DNA from: Promethearchaeota archaeon | GTDB taxonomy: Archaea > Asgardarchaeota > Lokiarchaeia > Sigyniarchaeales > SOKP01 | Assembly (NCBI GenBank): GCA_048938895.1 | Contig: JBHLLU010000041.1 | Span: 1-36,060, forward strand | DNA length: 36,060 bases | Reading direction: 5' to 3' | Shown here: positions 13,235-35,426 of the stretch, piece by piece | How the letters are laid out: the number at the start of each line of letters is the position of its first letter | Numbering within the stretch: position 1 is the stretch's first letter | Position numbers and translations under genes: made by a program | The notes under the pieces: generated by a model | Told to the model about the DNA's origin: nothing | The model's database searches: none | The model's input: the letters and a program-made list of their open reading frames with translations, nothing else

Positions 13235-14659
13235 TTAACTCATTTTCCAATGAGGTCCATCCTCAGAATCCTCAATTTGAATACCTACAGAACGTAATTT
13301 CTCCCGAATATCATCACTCATTTTATAATTCTTTTCTTTTCTTGCTTTTTCTCTAAGGTTGATAATGAGATCCATTAATTCATTTATTTTTGTATCATCT
13401 AGTCCTTTCTTTTTAGTGAAATCGAGTCCTAAAACCCCCAGTAATTCAAGTAGAGTTTCTTGAGCCCTTTCAAGTGTTTGCTTTTTATTATCTAATGAGG
13501 AATTTATTTGTCTTATGAATTCATGAATAGCTGCAATTGCTTTAGGATTATTGAAATCATCATCCATGGCTTCCTCAAAATTTTGTTTAACTTCCTCTAT
13601 GGCCTGATTGAGGTTTATTTTATTACCTCCTGAAGAATCTGCAATTAAGCTTAAACAATTCCGAATTCTTTCCACATTTTTCTTTGCGTTCTCAATTATA
13701 TCTGGATTCCAATCGGCAGCAGTTCGATAATGTCCTGCTACTAATCCCATACGAACAACAAGGCCTCCATATTTATCTATCAATTCACGGGCAGTAACAT
13801 AATTACCCAGGCTTTTACTCATTTTTTTTCCATTAACCGTAATGAATTCAGCATGCATCCAATAACGAACAAACTTTTTCCCAGTTGCAGCTTCAGCTTG
13901 AGCAATTTCATTTGGATGGTGAGTTGGGATATGATCAATCCCTCCTCCATGAATATCTAATGTTTCTCCTAAAAATTTCATTCCCATTATAGAACACTCA
14001 AGATGCCAACCAGGATATCCCCAGCCCCAGGGAGAATCCCAACGCATAATATGGATTTGATCACCTTTTTGAGCATTCAACCACAGAGCAAAATCAAAAT
14101 AGTTCTTTTTAAGAGGATCTTTATCAACACGGGCTTTTGCTTGTTCTTCATCAAGTTTTATTTTTGCAAGTTTCCCATAATCCTTGAATTTAGAAACATC
14201 ATAATATACATTTCCTTCAACTTCATACGCATATCCTTTATCTATAAGAGTCTTTATTAAGGCAATCATTTCAGGTATAACCGAAGTTGCTCTTGGACTA
14301 ATATTTGGTCTGTTAATATTCAATTCATCAATAACACGCCAGTATTCCTCGATTTCTCTATCTACTAACTCCCAAGGATTGATTTTTTCTTCACGCGCTC
14401 TTTTTTCTATCTTATCTTCCCCTTGATCAGCATCATCTGTTAAATGTCCTACATCAGTAAAATTTTGTACATGAAGTACTTTGTATCCTTTATACTTTAA
14501 ATAACGAATTACAATATCCCAGGCACTGTATGTTCTTGCATTTCCTATGTGACACTTTTCGTATACAGTCTGCCCACAAGTGTAGATCTTTACAGTTCCT
14601 TCTTCTAGTGGTGTAAAAACTTCCTTCTGTCTTGTCATAGTATTAAAGATTCTGAGCAT
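13235..14659 (-). CDS. cysS: Cysteinyl-tRNA synthetase
   Basis: YTCGQTVY..CHIGNAR, NFTDV, DFALW, PGWHLECS, DIHGGG.D...HH.NE, KMSKSLGN. Start taken at MLRIFNT (14659). Confidence 0.97.
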   Translation of the reverse strand: MLRIFNTMTRQKEVFTPLEEGTVKIYTCGQTVYEKCHIGNARTYSAWDIVIRYLKYKGYKVLHVQNFTDVGHLTDDADQGEDKIEKRAREEKINPWELVDREIEEYWRVIDELNINRPNISPRATSVIPEMIALIKTLIDKGYAYEVEGNVYYDVSKFKDYGKLAKIKLDEEQAKARVDKDPLKKNYFDFALWLNAQKGDQIHIMRWDSPWGWGYPGWHLECSIMGMKFLGETLDIHGGGIDHIPTHHPNEIAQAEAATGKKFVRYWMHAEFITVNGKKMSKSLGNYVTARELIDKYGGLVVRMGLVAGHYRTAADWNPDIIENAKKNVERIRNCLSLIADSSGGNKINLNQAIEEVKQNFEEAMDDDFNNPKAIAAIHEFIRQINSSLDNKKQTLERAQETLLELLGVLGLDFTKKKGLDDTKINELMDLIINLREKARKEKNYKMSDDIREKLRSVGIQIEDSEDGPHWKMS

Positions 14660-14733
14660 AACAAAGAAAAGCATAAGAAAATATAATAATTTTACGGAGT
14701 TAAATTACAAGTGGAAATTTGAAATAGAAAAAA

Positions 14734-17589
14734 TTAATTTTTTACATCTAAATACGCGTTAACTACATAATTATCTATATTGATTTTCTTATAATCTACT
14801 TTACCTTCAATACTTCTGAATATATTATCTGCTTGTACCATTTTTTTTATTTTTTCTTCGTGTTTCTCAATTGATTTCAGAATGTCTTTACTTTCTGTAG
14901 TTATGTAAAGATCTATTCGATTTTTCGGTGATAATTTCAATCGTTTTCTATAATTATTAAGATTTCTGATTAGATTTCGTGCTATTCCTTCAAGCTTTAA
15001 TTCTGCGTTAATATTTGTATCTAATTCAACCGTAAGCTCTTTACCATCTTTATTTTCAATTATAACATCTCTGACATTTAAAGCATTTAGAATGACCTGT
15101 AAGAAATCATTATCAAGAGATACTCCCCTTATTGTTAGTTTCTGCAATGGTTGTCTAACAGGAATTTTAGAATTTTCTCTTAATTCTAATGCTCTTTTTA
15201 TAACTTCTCTGGATACATCCATGCTTTTATGTATCTGAGGTCTAATTAATTTTTCATTATATTTCGGCCATAGTTCTAAATGAACAGAATCATAGCTAAC
15301 TAATCTACTTTCTCTCAATTTTTGATATATCATCTCAGCTATAAATGGAGTAAGGGGCGCTAGCAATTTTGATAGATTATAAAGTATATAAGATAATGTA
15401 TTCATAGCAGATGATTTTTCACGAATATCTTCACTTTTAAATCGATCTCTACTGTTTTTAACATACCAAGTGGACAGGTCCTCAACAAAAGCAAAGAAAA
15501 ACCTACTTACTTCTGCAGTATCATAATCTTCCATTCTTTCAGTAACATCCCGAATTAAGATATGTAACAAGCTGACAATCCATTTATCTAAGATATTGTT
15601 TGAATTAGATATATCCATAGCTCCTTCTCTAAAATCAATCATAGAATAAAATTTAAGAACGTTTATTAACAATAGATTAAACCTACGGTAAACTTGCTTT
15701 ATGATTTCTTCTTTAAAATTTAAATCCTTTGCCCTCATTAGTTGCGATGATAATAAATAGACTCTCAAGGCGTCTGCACCGTAATTTTCAATTATTATGT
15801 TTGGATCGGGGAAATTTCGTTTTGATTTAGACATTTTAGTTCCATCTTCAGCGAGAATATTACCATTTACAACTACGTGTTTAAACGGTATATCATTAAA
15901 TACTAAAATTGATATCACATGCATATAATAAAACCATGCTCTTACTTGTCCTATGTATTCTGAGACAAAATCACTTGGATAATTTGTCTTAAACCATTCA
16001 ACATTTTCAAAAGGGTAATGCTTTGCAGCAAAAGGCATCGAACCTGATTCTAACCAGCAATCAAATACTTCGGGAATACGATTCATTATTTTTTTACAGC
16101 TTGGGCATCGAAGATGAATTTCATCAACTATGTGTTTATGCAAATCTAAACTATTTGGCACCTTCTCTATAGCATTTTCTTGTAATTCTTTAACCGAACC
16201 GATAACTCTTATCTCATTACAATTCTCACACTCCCAAATTGGTATAGCTGTAGCCCAAAACCGATTTCTAGAGATACACCAATCTGGAGCTGTTTCGATT
16301 ATATTCTGGTATCTCTTCACTACATCCTTGGGATACCATTTAATAGCTTTATTAGTCTCCAGGAGTCTTGACTTTAATTGCTGAATATTTATAAACCACG
16401 CATCAAGAGCATTATAAATAAGTGGAGTATCGCATCTATAACAAAACGGATACGAATGTGCGTAATCTTCGGAATTAAATAATAGATTTCTTTGTTTCAA
16501 ATCCTCTAAAATTTCTTTATCTAAATCTTTAAACCACATACCAATCCACTCATTTGGACCACTTTTTAACTCCCCATGTTCATCAATATGCTGAATTGTG
16601 GTCAAATTGAATTTCTTTATCATCTCATAATCAAATTCTCCGTAAATTGCCAAATGAATAATTCCTGTTCCCTCATCGGAAAGAACATCTTCACCTCCAT
16701 CAACAATGATATGAGCAGTCCCATTTGAAGAATCAGAAATTTGATATAATGGTTTATATTTTTGATTAACTAGTTCTTTTCCCTCAAATTCCTTAATGAC
16801 TTCATAATTGGTTTTTATAATATCTAATCTGTTTTTAATTAAAATTAAAATTTCATTATTGACCTTAACTTTAACATATTTTTGCTCACTATTTATAGCT
16901 AATGCCACATTTCCGATTAGAGTCCAAGGTGTTGTCGTCCAAGCTAAAAGAAATGTTCCTGGTTCTCCTCTTAATTCAAATTTGGCAGTTACAGATTCTT
17001 CAGTAACATCCTTATAGCTATTATCCATTGAAATCTCAAAGTTAGAAAGTGGAGTTTCACAGCGAGGACAATAAAACAATACTTTTTTACCTTTATATAC
17101 AAATCCTTCATTATAGATTTTCTTGAAAATATACCACACAGTTTCCATATACGTATTATCCATGGTTTTATAAGAATTATCAAATTCTATCCATTTACCC
17201 ATTCTTTCAACAGTCTTTTTCCATTCATTTGCATTCCATAATACCTTTGATCGACAAAACTCATTGAAATCTGCTATACCCATCTCATAGATCTCATTCT
17301 TTTGTTTTATATTAAGAGATTTTTCACAAACACTTTCTATAGGAAGTCCGTGGCAATCCCAACCCCATCTTCTTTCACAACGATATCCTTTCATCGTCCA
17401 ATATCTCGGGAATACATCTTTTGTAACAATACTTAAGATATTTCCATAATGTGGCCTACCAGTAGCGAATGGGGGACCATCATAAAATACATAAGGTTTA
17501 TTCTCTGGTCTTTCTTCTACACTTCTTTCAAAGATTTGATTGTCATTCCAAAATTGGATGAGTTTTTTTTCCTTTTCATTATATGACAT
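14734..17589 (-). CDS. ileS: Isoleucyl-tRNA synthetase, type-2-like (no C-terminal zinc finger seen)
   Basis: DGPPFATGRPHYGN, GWDCHGLPIE, WTTTPWTL editing motif, DWCISRNRFW, KMSKS. A GGTGA SD precedes ATG 17589 (the ORF track extends to 17619). Confidence 0.96.
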   Translation of the reverse strand: MSYNEKEKKLIQFWNDNQIFERSVEERPENKPYVFYDGPPFATGRPHYGNILSIVTKDVFPRYWTMKGYRCERRWGWDCHGLPIESVCEKSLNIKQKNEIYEMGIADFNEFCRSKVLWNANEWKKTVERMGKWIEFDNSYKTMDNTYMETVWYIFKKIYNEGFVYKGKKVLFYCPRCETPLSNFEISMDNSYKDVTEESVTAKFELRGEPGTFLLAWTTTPWTLIGNVALAINSEQKYVKVKVNNEILILIKNRLDIIKTNYEVIKEFEGKELVNQKYKPLYQISDSSNGTAHIIVDGGEDVLSDEGTGIIHLAIYGEFDYEMIKKFNLTTIQHIDEHGELKSGPNEWIGMWFKDLDKEILEDLKQRNLLFNSEDYAHSYPFCYRCDTPLIYNALDAWFINIQQLKSRLLETNKAIKWYPKDVVKRYQNIIETAPDWCISRNRFWATAIPIWECENCNEIRVIGSVKELQENAIEKVPNSLDLHKHIVDEIHLRCPSCKKIMNRIPEVFDCWLESGSMPFAAKHYPFENVEWFKTNYPSDFVSEYIGQVRAWFYYMHVISILVFNDIPFKHVVVNGNILAEDGTKMSKSKRNFPDPNIIIENYGADALRVYLLSSQLMRAKDLNFKEEIIKQVYRRFNLLLINVLKFYSMIDFREGAMDISNSNNILDKWIVSLLHILIRDVTERMEDYDTAEVSRFFFAFVEDLSTWYVKNSRDRFKSEDIREKSSAMNTLSYILYNLSKLLAPLTPFIAEMIYQKLRESRLVSYDSVHLELWPKYNEKLIRPQIHKSMDVSREVIKRALELRENSKIPVRQPLQKLTIRGVSLDNDFLQVILNALNVRDVIIENKDGKELTVELDTNINAELKLEGIARNLIRNLNNYRKRLKLSPKNRIDLYITTESKDILKSIEKHEEKIKKMVQADNIFRSIEGKVDYKKINIDNYVVNAYLDVKN

Positions 17590-17632
17590 GCTTATCACCA
17601 TATTTTTGATTTCAAACACTTGAACATTACAT

Positions 17633-17823
17633 AAAAAAAAAATAATTATATTTTAAAGAACAAAATCATGGCCTTTGTTATCCATGAAGCAGGATGTGGA
17701 AAAAAGGCTATGAGAATCTGCTTCATGAAAAATATAATTTACCCAATAATAATAGATGTGATTATAACTATGGTTTCTATTGATTTTAAGAAATTTTTTG
17801 GTTTACTCATAGCATCCACATCC
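17633..17823 (-). promoter_or_regulatory. Putative attenuator: alternative RNA stems plus U-tracts in the ileS leader
   Basis: A (17806-17823) pairs with C (17692-17714) as 9+8 bp. B (17718-17727) pairs with D (17683-17692) as 10 bp. Part of C (17703-17713) pairs with E (17666-17676) at 10/11 bp. These are followed by UUUUGUUCUUU and a U10 run. Confidence 0.7.
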
Positions 17824-17825
17824 AT
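17739..17825 (-). CDS. Ile-rich leader peptide of ileS (28 aa, MDVDAMSKPKNFLKSIETIVIITSIIIG)
   Basis: 7 of the last 13 sense codons are Ile (ATA x3, ATC, ATT x3). The ORF ends 150 nt upstream of the ileS start. A TATA-like TTTTTAAA lies about 30 nt upstream of the ATG. A second in-frame ATG is at 17810. Confidence 0.78.
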   Translation of the reverse strand: MDVDAMSKPKNFLKSIETIVIITSIIIG

Positions 17826-18012
17826 GTCTACAATTATATTAAGACATTAAATTTTAAAAAATTGATGGTGATTTAGCATAAATTGTGTTATCGCAAAGAA
17901 TAACAATTTTCTTTTAGCTCAAATATAAAAAATCTAAATTTATCAGATATATAAAATAGATCCAAATAGGACTTTTTAATTATTTCAAACAACAAAATCT
18001 TGAGGGATAATA

Positions 18013-18441
18013 ATGAGGTCTATTGAATCTGAAATTAAGCGAGTTATCATAGGAAAGGTTGAACCTGATGAAGATCTTATTGATTCTGTGATTAATATGA
18101 TAAATATTCATAAGATTGGTTCTGGTTTAATTAATTGTATCGGGGCTTTGAAAAAATTCACCTTAGGTTACTTTGATTTCCCTTCAAAAGAATATTTGAG
18201 AAAGGAATTTGATATGTTCGTTGAGCTTGTCTCATGTATGGGTAATATTTCATTTAAAGACGGAGAACCAATAGTTCACCTCCATGCTACTTTAGGAACT
18301 AAAGATTATACAATACTAGGCGGACATTTATTCCAACCAAGCATAATCTCAATAACAGGTGAAGTCTATATCTATGGAATAGATAAGAAGCTAAACAGAA
18401 CCACAGATCCTCAACTTGGCTTAACACTTTTGAATATTTAA
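18013..18441 (+). CDS. PPC / DUF296 domain protein
   Basis: CIGAL, ELVSCMGNIS, PIVHLHATLG, GGHL motifs. Confidence 0.92.
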   Translation: MRSIESEIKRVIIGKVEPDEDLIDSVINMINIHKIGSGLINCIGALKKFTLGYFDFPSKEYLRKEFDMFVELVSCMGNISFKDGEPIVHLHATLGTKDYTILGGHLFQPSIISITGEVYIYGIDKKLNRTTDPQLGLTLLNI

Positions 18442-18458
18442 CGATCTAGGTGGAAAAA

Positions 18459-18989
18459 ATGGTAGAAAAAAAAATTAATCTAAAATTAGCTTTACTGGGA
18501 GACCCAGCAGTAGGAAAAACATCTTTGATTAATCGTTATACAGAGGAAGGTTTTAAAGATAATTATCAACCAACCTTAGGCGTTAATATTGTAATGAAAA
18601 AGCTCAAATTTAATGATCATGAAGTTCAAATGGCCATTTGGGATATTGCAGGACAAGATAAATACGATTTGACTCGTAAAATGTTTTTTGAAGGGTGCAG
18701 TGCATGTCTTCTCGTCTATGATAAATCTAGATCATCAACTTTTGATAGAATTCAGTCAAAATGGCTAGGAGACTTTAGAAAATTTGCACGACCAAATGGT
18801 ATTTATGTTTTAATCGGAAATAAAAGTGATTTGAAAGATTCAAAGTCAGTTTCCACAGAAAAAGGTCAAGGATTAGCTGAAGAGATTCAGGCAAGTGAAT
18901 TCATTGAAACTAGCGCAAAACTTGGTGATAATGTCGAAATTGCATTTAAAAAACTTGTTTCCCATGCACTAACCAAATTTAATATTTAA
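18459..18989 (+). CDS. Rab-like small GTPase
   Basis: G1 GDPAVGKT, G2 YQPTLG, G3 WDIAGQ, G4 NKSD, G5 ETSAK; no C-terminal Cys motif. A GGTGG SD favours ATG 18459 over GTG 18450. Confidence 0.95.
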   Translation: MVEKKINLKLALLGDPAVGKTSLINRYTEEGFKDNYQPTLGVNIVMKKLKFNDHEVQMAIWDIAGQDKYDLTRKMFFEGCSACLLVYDKSRSSTFDRIQSKWLGDFRKFARPNGIYVLIGNKSDLKDSKSVSTEKGQGLAEEIQASEFIETSAKLGDNVEIAFKKLVSHALTKFNI

Positions 18990-22930: not shown

Positions 22931-24073
22931 TTATGTATAATACGTTTTTAATAGAGCTCTCGTCAAATATTCTGTTGCGCTATATACCTGGTCTATAGAT
23001 ATTGATTCATTTAGTTTATGTACATCTTTTGGATTTCCTGGGCCAAAGATAATAAACGGAATAGAATTTTCTTCTGTAACAAATCTAGATGCATCTGTAG
23101 CATAAGGTAATCCAATTATTCTTGAATTGCTAATTTCAGCTAGATTTTGTATAAAAGGATGTTTGGAATCTGATTGTAATGGGGGTAGAATATTTACTAT
23201 TTCAATATCCATTTTCCAAGGATTTAGATTTAAACGTTTTAGGTTGGTAACTATCGTCTCAGTATCATGTTCCGGAATCAATCTAAAATCTACTTCTAAT
23301 TCTGTGTAATCTGGTACGACGTTAATTTTCGTACCTCCGTGAATCTTACCTATATTTATCGTGGAAGATCCCAAAAAGGGATTAATGGTATCATTTAAAC
23401 AAGTTTGCAATTGAGGAATAATATTTATAGCACCTTCAATAGCATTTAAACCTTCCTCTGGCATTGAACCATGTGCTGATCTTCCATAAATTTTTAACTT
23501 AACCCACAGTATTCCCTTTTCAGCAATACCTATTTCTAGATTTGTAGGTTCCCCGACAATTAACAATTCTGCATCGTTGATAATTCCTGTGCTCGCAAGA
23601 GTAAGAGAACCTGACATCCCAGCTTCCTCATCTGCTGTTCCTAAAAAAATTAATTGATGATTCTCTAAGAACTCTTTATTTTTACTAAGAGATTTCATAA
23701 CTCCTATCAAAGAAACAATTCCCCCTTTCATATCAGCTGAACCCCTTCCATGTAGCTTTCCGTCAATTATTCTTGCAGAAAAAGGAGGAATATCCCATTT
23801 TGATGAATCTCCTACAGGAACAACGTCAAAATGCCCTGATAAAAGTATCTTCTTTTTACCAAATCCAATTTTTGTTATTAAATTATGAAGTTTAATATTA
23901 TTTTTAAAGTGGGAAATTACCTGATTTTGAAATCCCTCTTCTTCCTTGAATACAGTTGAAATCAAGAAATCTACTATTTCTTCTGTTTTTCCAGGAGGAT
24001 TTTCTGTTGGTATCTGGACAAGCCTTTGTAAAATATAGACCAATCTTTCTCTTAGAGTATCATCTAAATTCAT
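22931..24073 (-). CDS. M20 family metallo-hydrolase (ArgE/DapE-like)
   Basis: SGHFDVVP, GRGSADMKGG, ADEE, GEPT, GRSAHGS, H..NE. Confidence 0.95.
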   Translation of the reverse strand: MNLDDTLRERLVYILQRLVQIPTENPPGKTEEIVDFLISTVFKEEEGFQNQVISHFKNNIKLHNLITKIGFGKKKILLSGHFDVVPVGDSSKWDIPPFSARIIDGKLHGRGSADMKGGIVSLIGVMKSLSKNKEFLENHQLIFLGTADEEAGMSGSLTLASTGIINDAELLIVGEPTNLEIGIAEKGILWVKLKIYGRSAHGSMPEEGLNAIEGAINIIPQLQTCLNDTINPFLGSSTINIGKIHGGTKINVVPDYTELEVDFRLIPEHDTETIVTNLKRLNLNPWKMDIEIVNILPPLQSDSKHPFIQNLAEISNSRIIGLPYATDASRFVTEENSIPFIIFGPGNPKDVHKLNESISIDQVYSATEYLTRALLKTYYT

Positions 24074-30540: not shown

Positions 30541-31236
30541 CTAGATAAAAGTAATATCTTGATATTCAGAGTCTCCGATATCTTTTTTGGCCACTCCAAG
30601 ATCTCGAACTTGTTGATTTAACTTTAAAACTGCATCTCTTACGATTTCTCTCCGTTTTGCTCCGGTACATACAATTCTTCCAGTACTAAAAATTAAAAAT
30701 ACTGTTTTTGGATCTTGCATACGATAAATCAATCCTGGAAATACTTCAGGTTCGTACATAGCATATTCCATTACAATAGCAGCCATATTTAAGTCAATAT
30801 TAGTATGAAGATCTCCAGATGCTACAATATTTTGAATAGTGATTTCGGGATTTGATAATTTTATTCCTGCTTTTCTTATGTTTTTTACAACCTTATCAAC
30901 CACTCGTTCTGCTTCTGCTGCTTGCCTTAATCCTGTGACTACCATTTTTCCTGTTGAGAAGATAAGAATTGTTGCTCTAGGTTTTTCAATTCGCATTACA
31001 AGACCTGGAAAACGTTCTGGGTTATATTCTACTTCTGCATGACGTCTCGCAATTTGATTAAGATCAATTTTTTCAGTAATCTCGACTGTAACTGTTGCCA
31101 CTACGTTTTCAATCTTGTAATCTAAGTCTTTTTCATAATCATACTCTCCTTCTTCCCCTTCTTCCCCCTCTTCATCGAGATCGTACTCATCCTCATCTTC
31201 AAATTCATCATCAAATTCATTTTCTTCTTCTGACAT
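30541..31236 (-). CDS. tbp: TATA-box binding protein with a long acidic N-terminal extension
   Basis: Two repeats: IENVVAT...YNPERFPGL...LIFSTGKMVVTG and IQNIVAS...YEPEVFPGL...LIFSTGRIVCTG. Confidence 0.98.
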   Translation of the reverse strand: MSEEENEFDDEFEDEDEYDLDEEGEEGEEGEYDYEKDLDYKIENVVATVTVEITEKIDLNQIARRHAEVEYNPERFPGLVMRIEKPRATILIFSTGKMVVTGLRQAAEAERVVDKVVKNIRKAGIKLSNPEITIQNIVASGDLHTNIDLNMAAIVMEYAMYEPEVFPGLIYRMQDPKTVFLIFSTGRIVCTGAKRREIVRDAVLKLNQQVRDLGVAKKDIGDSEYQDITFI

Positions 31237-34244: not shown

Positions 34245-35426
34245 TTAGACTAATTTACCATTCTCCATTATAGTTTTCTCTGAATTGTTTTTGTATTCTA
34301 CTTTAATATTTGCAATTGGGGCAGTAACAAAATCCCAATGCATCTGGGACGTTGAGGTTCCTCCAAAACTCTTATTAAAACCAAAAGCTACATGAACGCT
34401 TCCGTTTATCTTTTCATCTGTAAGGATATATCCAATCGCCTTAGTAATCATAGGATTACATCCAATCCCAAGTTCCCCAACATTATAAGTTCTAAGTTCA
34501 GGGACATTGTTTGCTTTATCTATTTTTTCACTTTGTTTAAAGGCTTCAATTAAAACATCTAAATTAGAGTCTGCAGTAACTTTTTCCAAGATTAATTTAC
34601 CCTCTTTAAAATGCAATTCCACATTTTTTACAAATTTTTGACTATATCTTTCTCTAGTTATAGGGCAGAAAAGGGTACCTTCCCCTTGAGTTTCAATAGG
34701 AGCGAAAAATACTTCTCCCGCAGGTAAATTTCCTCCTAAATCCCCCAAAGCAATTTGTTCTTCTGATAGTTTTCCATCATCTAGAATTTTTGTACGATTC
34801 TCTACGGATATCCAGAAATCTGTTCCATTATCATCCCTTACATATATTTTTTTTGCATTTTCGAACTTATCTCCTAAATTCTTTACTATTGAGGTAAATT
34901 CTTCAGATGGAATGCTCATTCCATCAACAATAAATGTTTCAAATAATTTATAATTAATATTGAAGAATTTGGCGGCTTTTTTAGAAGGCCACGCAGCATA
35001 ACACCATTTCTTACCCGGGGCATATTCATCTGTAAATCCATACAATATATCTCTCAAAGGAGCTACTGATTTTTGATAAGCTTCAAGTTTTTCTTTTGGG
35101 GCTTTGTTTCGAATCACAGGATTCTCTGGATATTCAATAACAATGTATGCATCGATTCTTTTAAGCATTTCAAGAAAGGGTTGTCTTGTATTTTCTATTG
35201 TTTTAGCTTTAATTCGTTCATCTTGCCATTGCATTTCTTCATAATAATCACTTGTTGCACCAATATGGGGAATTCCTCCTTTTCTAAGAACGCTTAATCC
35301 AATTTCTTCCAGAAGCTCTTGGCTATATGTATTACCTTTTATATAGACAAATTCGCCTTCCTTTTGTATATTTATACTTCGAGCAATGTTTTCTGCACAG
35401 GATTTAATTTTTTGTTTATCAATCAT
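34245..35426 (-). CDS. M29 family aminopeptidase (AmpS/AmpT-like)
   Basis: NLPAGEVF.AP, GELGIG.N, IL.DEK..G.VH.AFG, S.MHWD. Confidence 0.93.
   Translation of the reverse strand: MIDKQKIKSCAENIARSINIQKEGEFVYIKGNTYSQELLEEIGLSVLRKGGIPHIGATSDYYEEMQWQDERIKAKTIENTRQPFLEMLKRIDAYIVIEYPENPVIRNKAPKEKLEAYQKSVAPLRDILYGFTDEYAPGKKWCYAAWPSKKAAKFFNINYKLFETFIVDGMSIPSEEFTSIVKNLGDKFENAKKIYVRDDNGTDFWISVENRTKILDDGKLSEEQIALGDLGGNLPAGEVFFAPIETQGEGTLFCPITRERYSQKFVKNVELHFKEGKLILEKVTADSNLDVLIEAFKQSEKIDKANNVPELRTYNVGELGIGCNPMITKAIGYILTDEKINGSVHVAFGFNKSFGGTSTSQMHWDFVTAPIANIKVEYKNNSEKTIMENGKLV

Follow-up and report, generated by a model that had tools for sequence, protein, structure and literature searches.

The ileS2 leader and its open reading frame

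We analysed a stretch of 36,060 nucleotides (nt) of DNA from a Promethearchaeota archaeon (assembly GCA_048938895.1, contig JBHLLU010000041.1, positions 1 to 36,060), referred to here as the window, which has a G+C content of 31.5%. Our subject is the 5' leader of an accessory isoleucyl-tRNA synthetase (IleRS) gene, which we name ileS2. The leader lies in a 420-nt gap between two divergent genes and combines a short open reading frame (ORF) ending in isoleucine codons with several RNA helices. Could a ribosome on this ORF decide which of the helices form, and what would follow for ileS2? An initial annotation, made from the letters of the DNA, had described the region as the leader of an ileS gene with three competing helices and two U-tracts; all of these elements are present, on the minus strand. 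The features of the leader in transcript order, followed by the gene, are these.

17852..17862 (-): AUUUUUUAAAA (transcript strand), a putative TATA-like element that would serve as the leader's promoter, ~27 nt ahead of the predicted 5' end
17806..17825 (-): segment A, AUGGAUGUGGAUGCUAUGAG, holding the probable Shine-Dalgarno sequence and the AUG at 17810..17808; partner of A' or C (the A arm of the initial annotation was 17823..17806)
17739..17810 (-): leader ORF from the conserved AUG, MSKPKNFLKSIETIVIITSIIIG and stop, 23 codons plus UAA
17752..17760 (-): segment A', CACAUCUAU, the alternative partner of A; part of the ORF, directly against the Ile run
17745..17753 (-): Ile run AUU AUU AUU, then GGG UAA; the run is the proposed stall site, and AUUAUUAUU is invariant
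17718..17727 (-): segment B, CAUGAAGCAG, 5' arm of B:D, 11 nt after the leader stop
17692..17714 (-): segment C, with C1 CUCAUAGC (17714..17707), a 6-nt linker and C2 UCCACAUCC (17700..17692); lies in the B:D loop and pairs with A
17683..17692 (-): segment D, CUGCUUCAUG, 3' arm of B:D, beginning on the last base of C
17655..17676 (-): segment E, AAAGGCCAUGA (17676..17666), followed by UUUUGUUCUUU (17665..17655); lineage-specific
17633..17654 (-): AAAAUAUAAUU then AUUUUUUUUUU, with U10 at 17642..17633; a T-run of conserved position
17599..17595 (-): GGUGA, Shine-Dalgarno sequence of ileS2, compared with the 16S 3' end of the genus
17589..17587 (-): AUG start codon of ileS2
14734..17589 (-): ileS2, accessory IleRS gene, 951 amino acids (aa), the proposed regulated gene

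The 951-aa product scores 821.6 bits against the TIGR00392 ileS equivalog model (cut-off 621.4), which bears out the annotated link of this archaeal leader to an IleRS gene. It carries the Pfam domains tRNA-synt_1 (class I synthetase) and Anticodon_1 and a KMSKS motif, and its HIGH motif reads HYGN in the window, a departure from HxGH. On these matches the gene is an isoleucyl-tRNA synthetase, an accessory paralog: the same genome encodes a second, canonical IleRS (contig C146, ~41-44 kb, 1061-aa open frame) with 34% identity to the 951-aa type. The canonical longer type occurs in nearly all genus genomes searched, and a protein search found the 951-aa type in 18 of 37. Close relatives of the 951-aa gene are found in metagenome-assembled genome records of Promethearchaeota (Lokiarchaeial Asgard archaea). 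Outside the Asgard archaea, its best matches come from bacteria of the candidate phyla radiation, with 51% and 39% identity across the first 300 residues, a hint of horizontal transfer; no such leader was found upstream of these bacterial relatives.

The HIGH signature itself (residues 46-49, ~17440-17460, minus strand) varies among 32 orthologs: 21 keep the canonical HYGH, 7 have QHGN, and HYGN is shared by the window and 3 relatives. A different non-canonical motif, G/AXHH, confers mupirocin hyper-resistance on bacterial IleRS2, according to a preprint (10.1101/2023.01.31.526100).

Comparative counts below refer to 32 distinct leaders, 27 from genome-search loci and 5 from named records, all of one Lokiarchaeial (Promethearchaeota) genus; helix counts are from the 32-sequence alignment (A2) unless stated. 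Full-length leader DNA was present in 26 of 54 genus genomes. The leader stands at all 18 loci that the genus protein search returned with the 951-aa gene, and at 28 of 28 Asgard loci. Within its own genome the pairing of motifs A and C is unique, with no other copy in 4.65 Mb. A metagenome scan for GGATGTGG-N(100-130)-CCACATCC returned at least 118 loci; none among the matches listed has Ile codons or the B/D motif, and we therefore take these matches to be due to chance.

The window's ORF reads MDVDAMSKPKNFLKSIETIVIITSIIIG to its stop when both in-frame AUGs are counted (minus strand). An ORF of 20-25 codons (24 codons in 27 leaders) with common start and stop columns was found in 32 of 32 leaders; it starts with AUG in 31 and GUG in 1, and stops with UAA in 31 and UGA in 1. 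All 32 end in three to five Ile codons (AUU/AUC/AUA), placed last or with a single further codon after them, and all have at least three consecutive Ile codons inside the last five codons. The peptide also has a conserved core, KFLGF..QNMIKIISTIIII. The annotated isoleucine-rich mini-ORF thus holds throughout, and it is only its start that has to be moved: the window's first AUG, at 17825, is GUG, ACG or CUG in most relatives, so that the conserved start in the alignment is the second AUG (17810..17808). Two other candidates were inspected by eye, a short ORF that would open at an (A/G)UG within B and one AUG of the spacer block UGAUGGAUA; neither is in a frame that the relatives preserve.

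The 16S rRNA was not found in the organism's own genome, and the 3' end of two genus relatives (GGAUCACCUCC) was used instead. Of the seven bases GGAUGUG in segment A, six are complementary to this 16S end, and the motif stops 6 nt short of the leader AUG, so segment A is probably the Shine-Dalgarno sequence of the leader ORF. Upstream of A, relatives conserve a block, ATATTTTTTAGA / AATTTTTTAAAA, similar to the TATA-like sequence that precedes the leuS leader described below. Judged by spacing, transcription probably begins a few nt ahead of A.

The start of ileS2 is itself variable. Among 32 orthologs the start position reads AUU in 16, AUA in 3 and AUG in 12, with one unalignable, and a Shine-Dalgarno sequence AGGUG lies 6-7 nt upstream. 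In two of them (L014 and L018) the start must be AUU, because the upstream in-frame GUG directly precedes UAA. AUU and AUA are rare start codons and are themselves Ile codons. Downstream of ileS2, on the same strand and after a gap of 59 nt, lies a cysteinyl-tRNA synthetase (cysS-like) gene (13238-14674, minus strand), which on account of that arrangement may be co-transcribed with ileS2 under the same leader.

Covarying helices and two exclusive folds

Taken by itself, the window is indecisive. An inverted-repeat search returned 14 pairs in the 281 nt of the leader region, among them the A:C arms (9 nt + 8 nt, both 100% complementary), B:D as a 15-nt arm pair (87%) and A:A' (9 nt, 89%). The minimum free energy (MFE) of the leader at 17589-17845 (minus strand) has a z score of -1.18, and A:A' is used in that fold. 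A cmscan search of 17400-18200 against Rfam (E <= 10) returned no T-box, its five matches being weak and unrelated. With a fold energy this unremarkable and Rfam empty, the case rests on the relatives.

Across the relatives, the long-range helix A:C is paired in 99.0% of cells in its C2 part and 83.1% in its C1 part, and B:D in 96.5%; taken together, A:C and B:D are paired in 93.3% of cells, and partners slid by 1-3 columns reach 37-52%. Seven pairs have changed on both sides, a number matched by none of 500 shuffles. Pair 25:136 of A:C is C:G in 18 leaders and U:A in 9, and pair 22:145 turns from A:U to U:A in one leader (L077). Pair 124:156 is U:G in 14, U:A in 10 and C:G in 8, and pair 123:157 changes from G:C to A:U in the most divergent leader. 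The pair types seen in B:D are UA/UG/CG, AU/GU/GC, UG/UA/CG and GU/AU/GC. On a tree of the gene's first 880 nt, the changes are scattered over separate branches; L053, for example, has U:A at 25:136 where its sister L012 has C:G.

A further helix, overlooked by the initial annotation, changes the wiring as read from the alignment. Segment A also pairs with A', the stretch of coding sequence against the Ile run, and A:A' is paired in 97.5% of cells, with slid controls at 14-57%. The unconstrained RNAalifold consensus predicts B:D together with A:A'. Over the four helices, G:U cells outnumber A:C (adenine-cytosine) cells 109 to 12, which identifies the helices as RNA of the ileS strand.

The third helix of the initial annotation, a C:E terminator stem, did not survive comparison. 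In the window it is strong, with 10 of 11 pairs, -11.3 kcal/mol and z = -3.6 against shuffles. Across the 32 leaders it is paired in 54.7% of cells (55.4% on a 27-sequence alignment), slid partners giving 34-50%, and its duplex falls below z = -2 in only 1 of 32, the window itself (mean z = -0.02); the closest relatives, L002 and L032, give z = 0.61 and 1.09. A hairpin D':E', in which the CCAUGA of E pairs with the UCAUGG in the 3' half of D, has z = -3.0 in the window and recurs weakly elsewhere (mean z = -0.99, 6 of 32 below -2), not conserved column-wise. Covariation among homologous leaders, which the initial annotation had named as one of its checks, thus speaks for A:C and B:D and against C:E. 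Of what it had noted, two of three helices and one of two U-tracts exceed chance in this alignment.

Can the conserved helices form together? A cannot pair with A' and C simultaneously. A:C also excludes B:D: C and D are joined by a linker of zero nt and B lies between A and C, so that both together would be a sterically impossible pseudoknot over a 17-base-pair (bp) stem, a judgement made on general pseudoknot geometry rather than by computation. By these constraints the conserved switch is a choice between [A:A' + B:D] and [A:C]. That A:C and B:D are real and competing is as the initial annotation had it, and so is the burial of the leader's start codon by A:C, which also covers the probable Shine-Dalgarno sequence.

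Folding with and without a masked ribosome footprint indicates how the choice might be made. In naked RNA up to D, the mean probability is 0.69 for A:C and 0.27 for B:D, and 9 of 32 sequences prefer B:D. Masking a footprint on the Ile run, which covers A', moves A:C to 0.94 and B:D to 0.01. Masking A in addition gives B:D 0.93. The direction first proposed, in which a ribosome stalled on the Ile codons frees B for a B:D antiterminator, is therefore reversed in the masked ensemble unless A is covered as well. We prefer, within this model, a reading in which stalling releases A over one in which stalling forms B:D, mainly because A' sits directly against the stall site.

A candidate ribosome-read switch and its alternatives

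The ileS2 leader appears to have a relative. A scan of the genome for small ORFs with codon runs upstream of long ORFs found a Leu-rich ORF before a LeuRS-like gene (contig C125, ~17568-17800, plus strand), outside the window. In 30 of 30 genus loci fetched (L100-L129), this ORF of ~27-28 codons ends in LLAVLLL. The stop codon marks the beginning of the 5' arm of a conserved 13-15 bp hairpin, and the U-rich loop of this hairpin matches a complementary GAAAGAG..CAUAGG further downstream, with apparent covariation. A further helix joins the 5' part of the ORF to the bases just before the Leu run, which is the design of A:A'. There is no T-run between these structures and the gene. Judged by this layout, the element looks like a Leu-sensing sister of the ileS2 leader. 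The genus has two LeuRS-like genes; no upstream ORF with a cognate codon run was found before the second of them, before the canonical IleRS gene or before a ValRS-like gene. The genome abounds in small ORFs that carry at least four Ile, Leu, Lys or Phe codons in a row (336 of them). Codon runs that match the gene on two synthetase paralogs make chance or a peptide-only function unlikely.

We then considered what lies between the helices and the gene. From D to the ileS2 start there are 91-117 nt of A/U-rich sequence (29 rows listed). No conserved helix of at least 6 bp was found there in the 20-sequence main clade, folding of the spacer sequence by sequence gave no common structure, and no conserved hairpin precedes any U-tract in the leaders. 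The two U-tracts of the initial annotation fared differently. The one beside C:E is recovered as a U4 tract ~16 nt after D in 7 of 29 rows listed; the other, at the place of the window's U10, is at least five U long in 30 of 32 leaders and at least six in 23 of 32. This T-run begins 39-60 nt after D and 42-75 nt before the ileS2 start (29 rows listed). For scale, runs of at least six T number 70 in the 36,060 nt of the window, and those of at least six A number 75. The T-run could be an oligo-U termination site, or it may be a TATA box or other promoter element, as far as its composition and place tell.

Two candidate routes to an output were rejected. In the window, AAAAUAUAAUU pairs perfectly with AAUUAUAUUUU (17739..17729) right after the leader stop, as an 11-bp A/U helix whose second arm (17644-17654) precedes U10; as a conserved terminator stem this helix fails (mean z = -0.24 over 30 sequences, 7 of 30 below -1) and is specific to the window. 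A relay that would link D or E with the ileS2 ribosome-binding region is ruled out by a lack of complementarity beyond chance between that region and the segment after D (duplex mean z = -0.05), together with unchanged accessibility of the region.

The best explanation of the whole, and one that we consider somewhat probable, is that the 5' leader of ileS2 is a ribosome-read RNA switch. The transcript would start a few nt before A, which carries the Shine-Dalgarno-like GGAUGUG and the AUG of a ~24-codon ORF ending in Ile codons. Fold 1 would be A:A' with hairpin B:D, and fold 2 the 17-bp long-range A:C, which would break B:D. When charged tRNA-Ile is plentiful, the ribosome would complete the ORF and depart, leaving A' free, and fold 1 would result. 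When it is scarce, the ribosome would wait on the Ile codons and cover A', so that A would be released to pair with C; B:D would then be blocked and the leader's own start site closed. The amount of RNA polymerase or mRNA that gets across the ~110-nt unstructured A/U-rich spacer, with its T-run, to ileS2 would in turn depend on the fold. The analysis shows the ORF, the four helices with their covariation and exclusion, and the tie to an accessory IleRS; stalling, the fold that represents the ON state and the output step are what we infer here. The output would most likely be altered premature 3'-end formation in the spacer, and in our model we rank such regulated 3'-end formation first and effects on stability or translation second.

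Several points weigh against this account. The 32 leaders come from one genus and are hence related, so that the shuffle statistics overstate the case, and A' lies in coding sequence, so that part of its conservation may stem from the peptide. The direction of the switch hinges on an assumption: if ribosomes also cover A, stalling would lead to B:D (0.93) and not A:C. The footprint used, ~12-15 nt on either side of the P site, is a general value rather than one measured in this host, and equilibrium folding, as modelled here, ignores kinetics. On the output side, the spacer lacks a conserved helix, and the accessibility of the ileS2 ribosome-binding region is 0.438 with D free and 0.448 with D sequestered. 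The T-run lies 39-60 nt beyond D, too far for direct contact by either fold, and its block is similar to the TATA-like one ahead of the leuS leader. What we say of the transcript ends, of mini-ORF translation and of a response to isoleucine is prediction from sequence.

One potential alternative keeps the sensor and changes its output. The T-run would be the TATA box of a second ileS2 promoter, or neutral, and the folds would act on mRNA stability (through a 5' end locked in a helix, or through protection by the stalled ribosome), on processing or on the translation of ileS2. In most relatives the block with the T-run reads AAATATTTTTTTAATAT, which does resemble AAATATTTTAATATAAAA, a sequence ~26 nt before the leuS leader AUG; the distance of the block from the ileS2 start, the many genes of the window that lack a Shine-Dalgarno sequence and have a TATA-like block 20-35 nt ahead of their ATG, and a leuS leader that has no T-run point the same way. 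An AUU or AUA start in 19 of 32 orthologs would also make initiation a sensitive control point. Against an effect on translation stand the duplex z of the post-D segment with the ileS2 ribosome-binding region and the unchanged accessibility of that region, and we regard this alternative as rather unlikely. A classic trp-type attenuator, in which C:E with UUUUGUUCUUU terminates, B:D antiterminates on an Ile stall, a ribosome at the stop codon blocks B and A:C only shuts off leader translation, appears improbable. It draws on the strength of C:E in the window with a U-rich tract directly after it, on a B that begins 11 nt after the stop, in reach of a terminating ribosome, and on the chance that initiating or queued ribosomes cover A, whereupon stalling would favour B:D. 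It is opposed by the loss of C:E even in the closest relatives, by an adjacent U4 tract confined to a minority of the rows listed, and by the conserved A:A', which it leaves without a role. Archaeal termination, moreover, as usually described, depends on oligo-U and on factors, not on a hairpin.

It is distinctly improbable that the mini-ORF is a functional small hydrophobic peptide, or the helices a protein site (for IleRS2 self-regulation, for example), with the Ile run incidental at 31% G+C. The conserved peptide core would fit, as would the abundance of run-bearing small ORFs in the genome. However, an Ile-run leader occurs only before the IleRS paralog and a Leu-run leader only before the LeuRS paralog, the AUUAUUAUU codons are invariant at the nucleotide level, and the helices extend over the start site and right up to the codon run. 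Chance inverted repeats, or repeats acting at the DNA level, such as an operator or the remains of a mobile element, in either case without a function in RNA, can hardly be credited. The modest MFE z score and the 14 inverted-repeat pairs in AT-rich DNA are what such repeats would give, but they are contradicted by the covariation and by the excess of G:U over adenine-cytosine cells; the single occurrence of the A..C motif pair in the 4.65-Mb genome and the Rfam search without a match also count against them.

Elsewhere in the window, a T-rich TATA-like block lies 20-35 nt upstream of the ATG in many genes that lack a Shine-Dalgarno sequence (for example, 22931-24073, 30541-31236 and 34245-35426, all on the minus strand), which suggests that mRNAs of the window are mostly leaderless. 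Among these genes, ileS2 and its leader ORF are exceptional in having Shine-Dalgarno-like sequences. The plus-strand neighbours include a PCC-domain gene beside a Ras-family small GTPase gene (18450-18989, plus strand; PF00071, E = 2.9e-47), which fits an Asgard genome.

Comparison with known leader systems

How does the ribosome-read switch proposed here compare with leaders already described? The bacterial attenuators (trp, his, leu, ilvGMEDA, ilvBN, thr, pheA) offer an analogy in the short ORF with a run of cognate codons, the exclusive helices and a choice made by ribosome position. The ileS2 leader has a cognate-codon ORF, a gene tied to the same amino acid and exclusive helices that shift on masking. 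In contrast to the bacterial cases, it belongs to an Asgard archaeon and would regulate a synthetase paralog, not a biosynthetic operon. Its sensing helix is the 5' Shine-Dalgarno and start region, pairing with the codons before the run or with a hairpin loop, so that the switch includes the leader's own start site. A G+C-rich terminator hairpin with a U-tract was tested and is not conserved (C:E is confined to the window, the helix before U10 is not conserved and the spacer has no conserved helix); we therefore do not file the leader as a bacterial attenuator.

In T-box leaders before ileS or ileS2 in Firmicutes, a second IleRS likewise comes under the control of tRNA-Ile charging and can so be induced upon failure of the main IleRS. 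Uncharged tRNA is bound by the T-box itself, without translation, whereas the sensor of the archaeal ileS2 leader would be an ORF with Ile codons. A preprint on Priestia megaterium reports that its second IleRS is induced ~70-fold by the IleRS inhibitor mupirocin, the authors ascribing this to a T-box that senses uncharged tRNA-Ile (10.1101/2022.02.09.479832). The biological logic proposed for the archaeal leader matches that of the Priestia ileS2.

With the translational attenuation of ermC and cat, the ileS2 leader would share a stalled leader ribosome that remodels a downstream hairpin. In ermC and cat, the hairpin conceals the ribosome-binding site of a gene that follows within a few nt; here the ileS2 site lies 91-117 nt beyond D (rows listed), its Shine-Dalgarno sequence and start fall outside all conserved helices, and neither its accessibility nor the duplex scores connect it to the switch. 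The tnaC leader with Rho, and the mgtA and corA leaders, resemble the present one in having a leader ORF followed by a long, weakly structured, untranslated spacer for a termination factor. To our knowledge, archaea lack Rho; the analogous archaeal termination factor would be FttA/aCPSF1.

Searches of full-text literature gave no description of an archaeal leader-peptide attenuator or of an archaeal ileS leader. We tentatively propose, as something quite possible, that the genus evolved its own class of ribosome-read leaders before accessory synthetase paralogs, for Ile and for Leu. A stalled pioneer ribosome, loaded during transcription, would free the 5' Shine-Dalgarno segment to invade a hairpin loop, and the output would be archaeal in kind, through oligo-U or FttA-dependent 3'-end formation or through mRNA stability. 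This would be the first archaeal attenuation by tRNA charging.

Control of genes after initiation is poorly documented in archaea. With its codon run, its four covarying helices and a sister element on the LeuRS paralog, the leader offers a concrete, mutable test case of whether ribosome position controls expression in the archaeal lineage closest to eukaryotes. It further suggests inducible back-up synthetases in these organisms, possibly against natural synthetase inhibitors, as in Bacilli with ileS2. Set beside these systems, the ileS2 leader is best described, from its conserved elements, as an archaeal variant of leader-peptide sensing.

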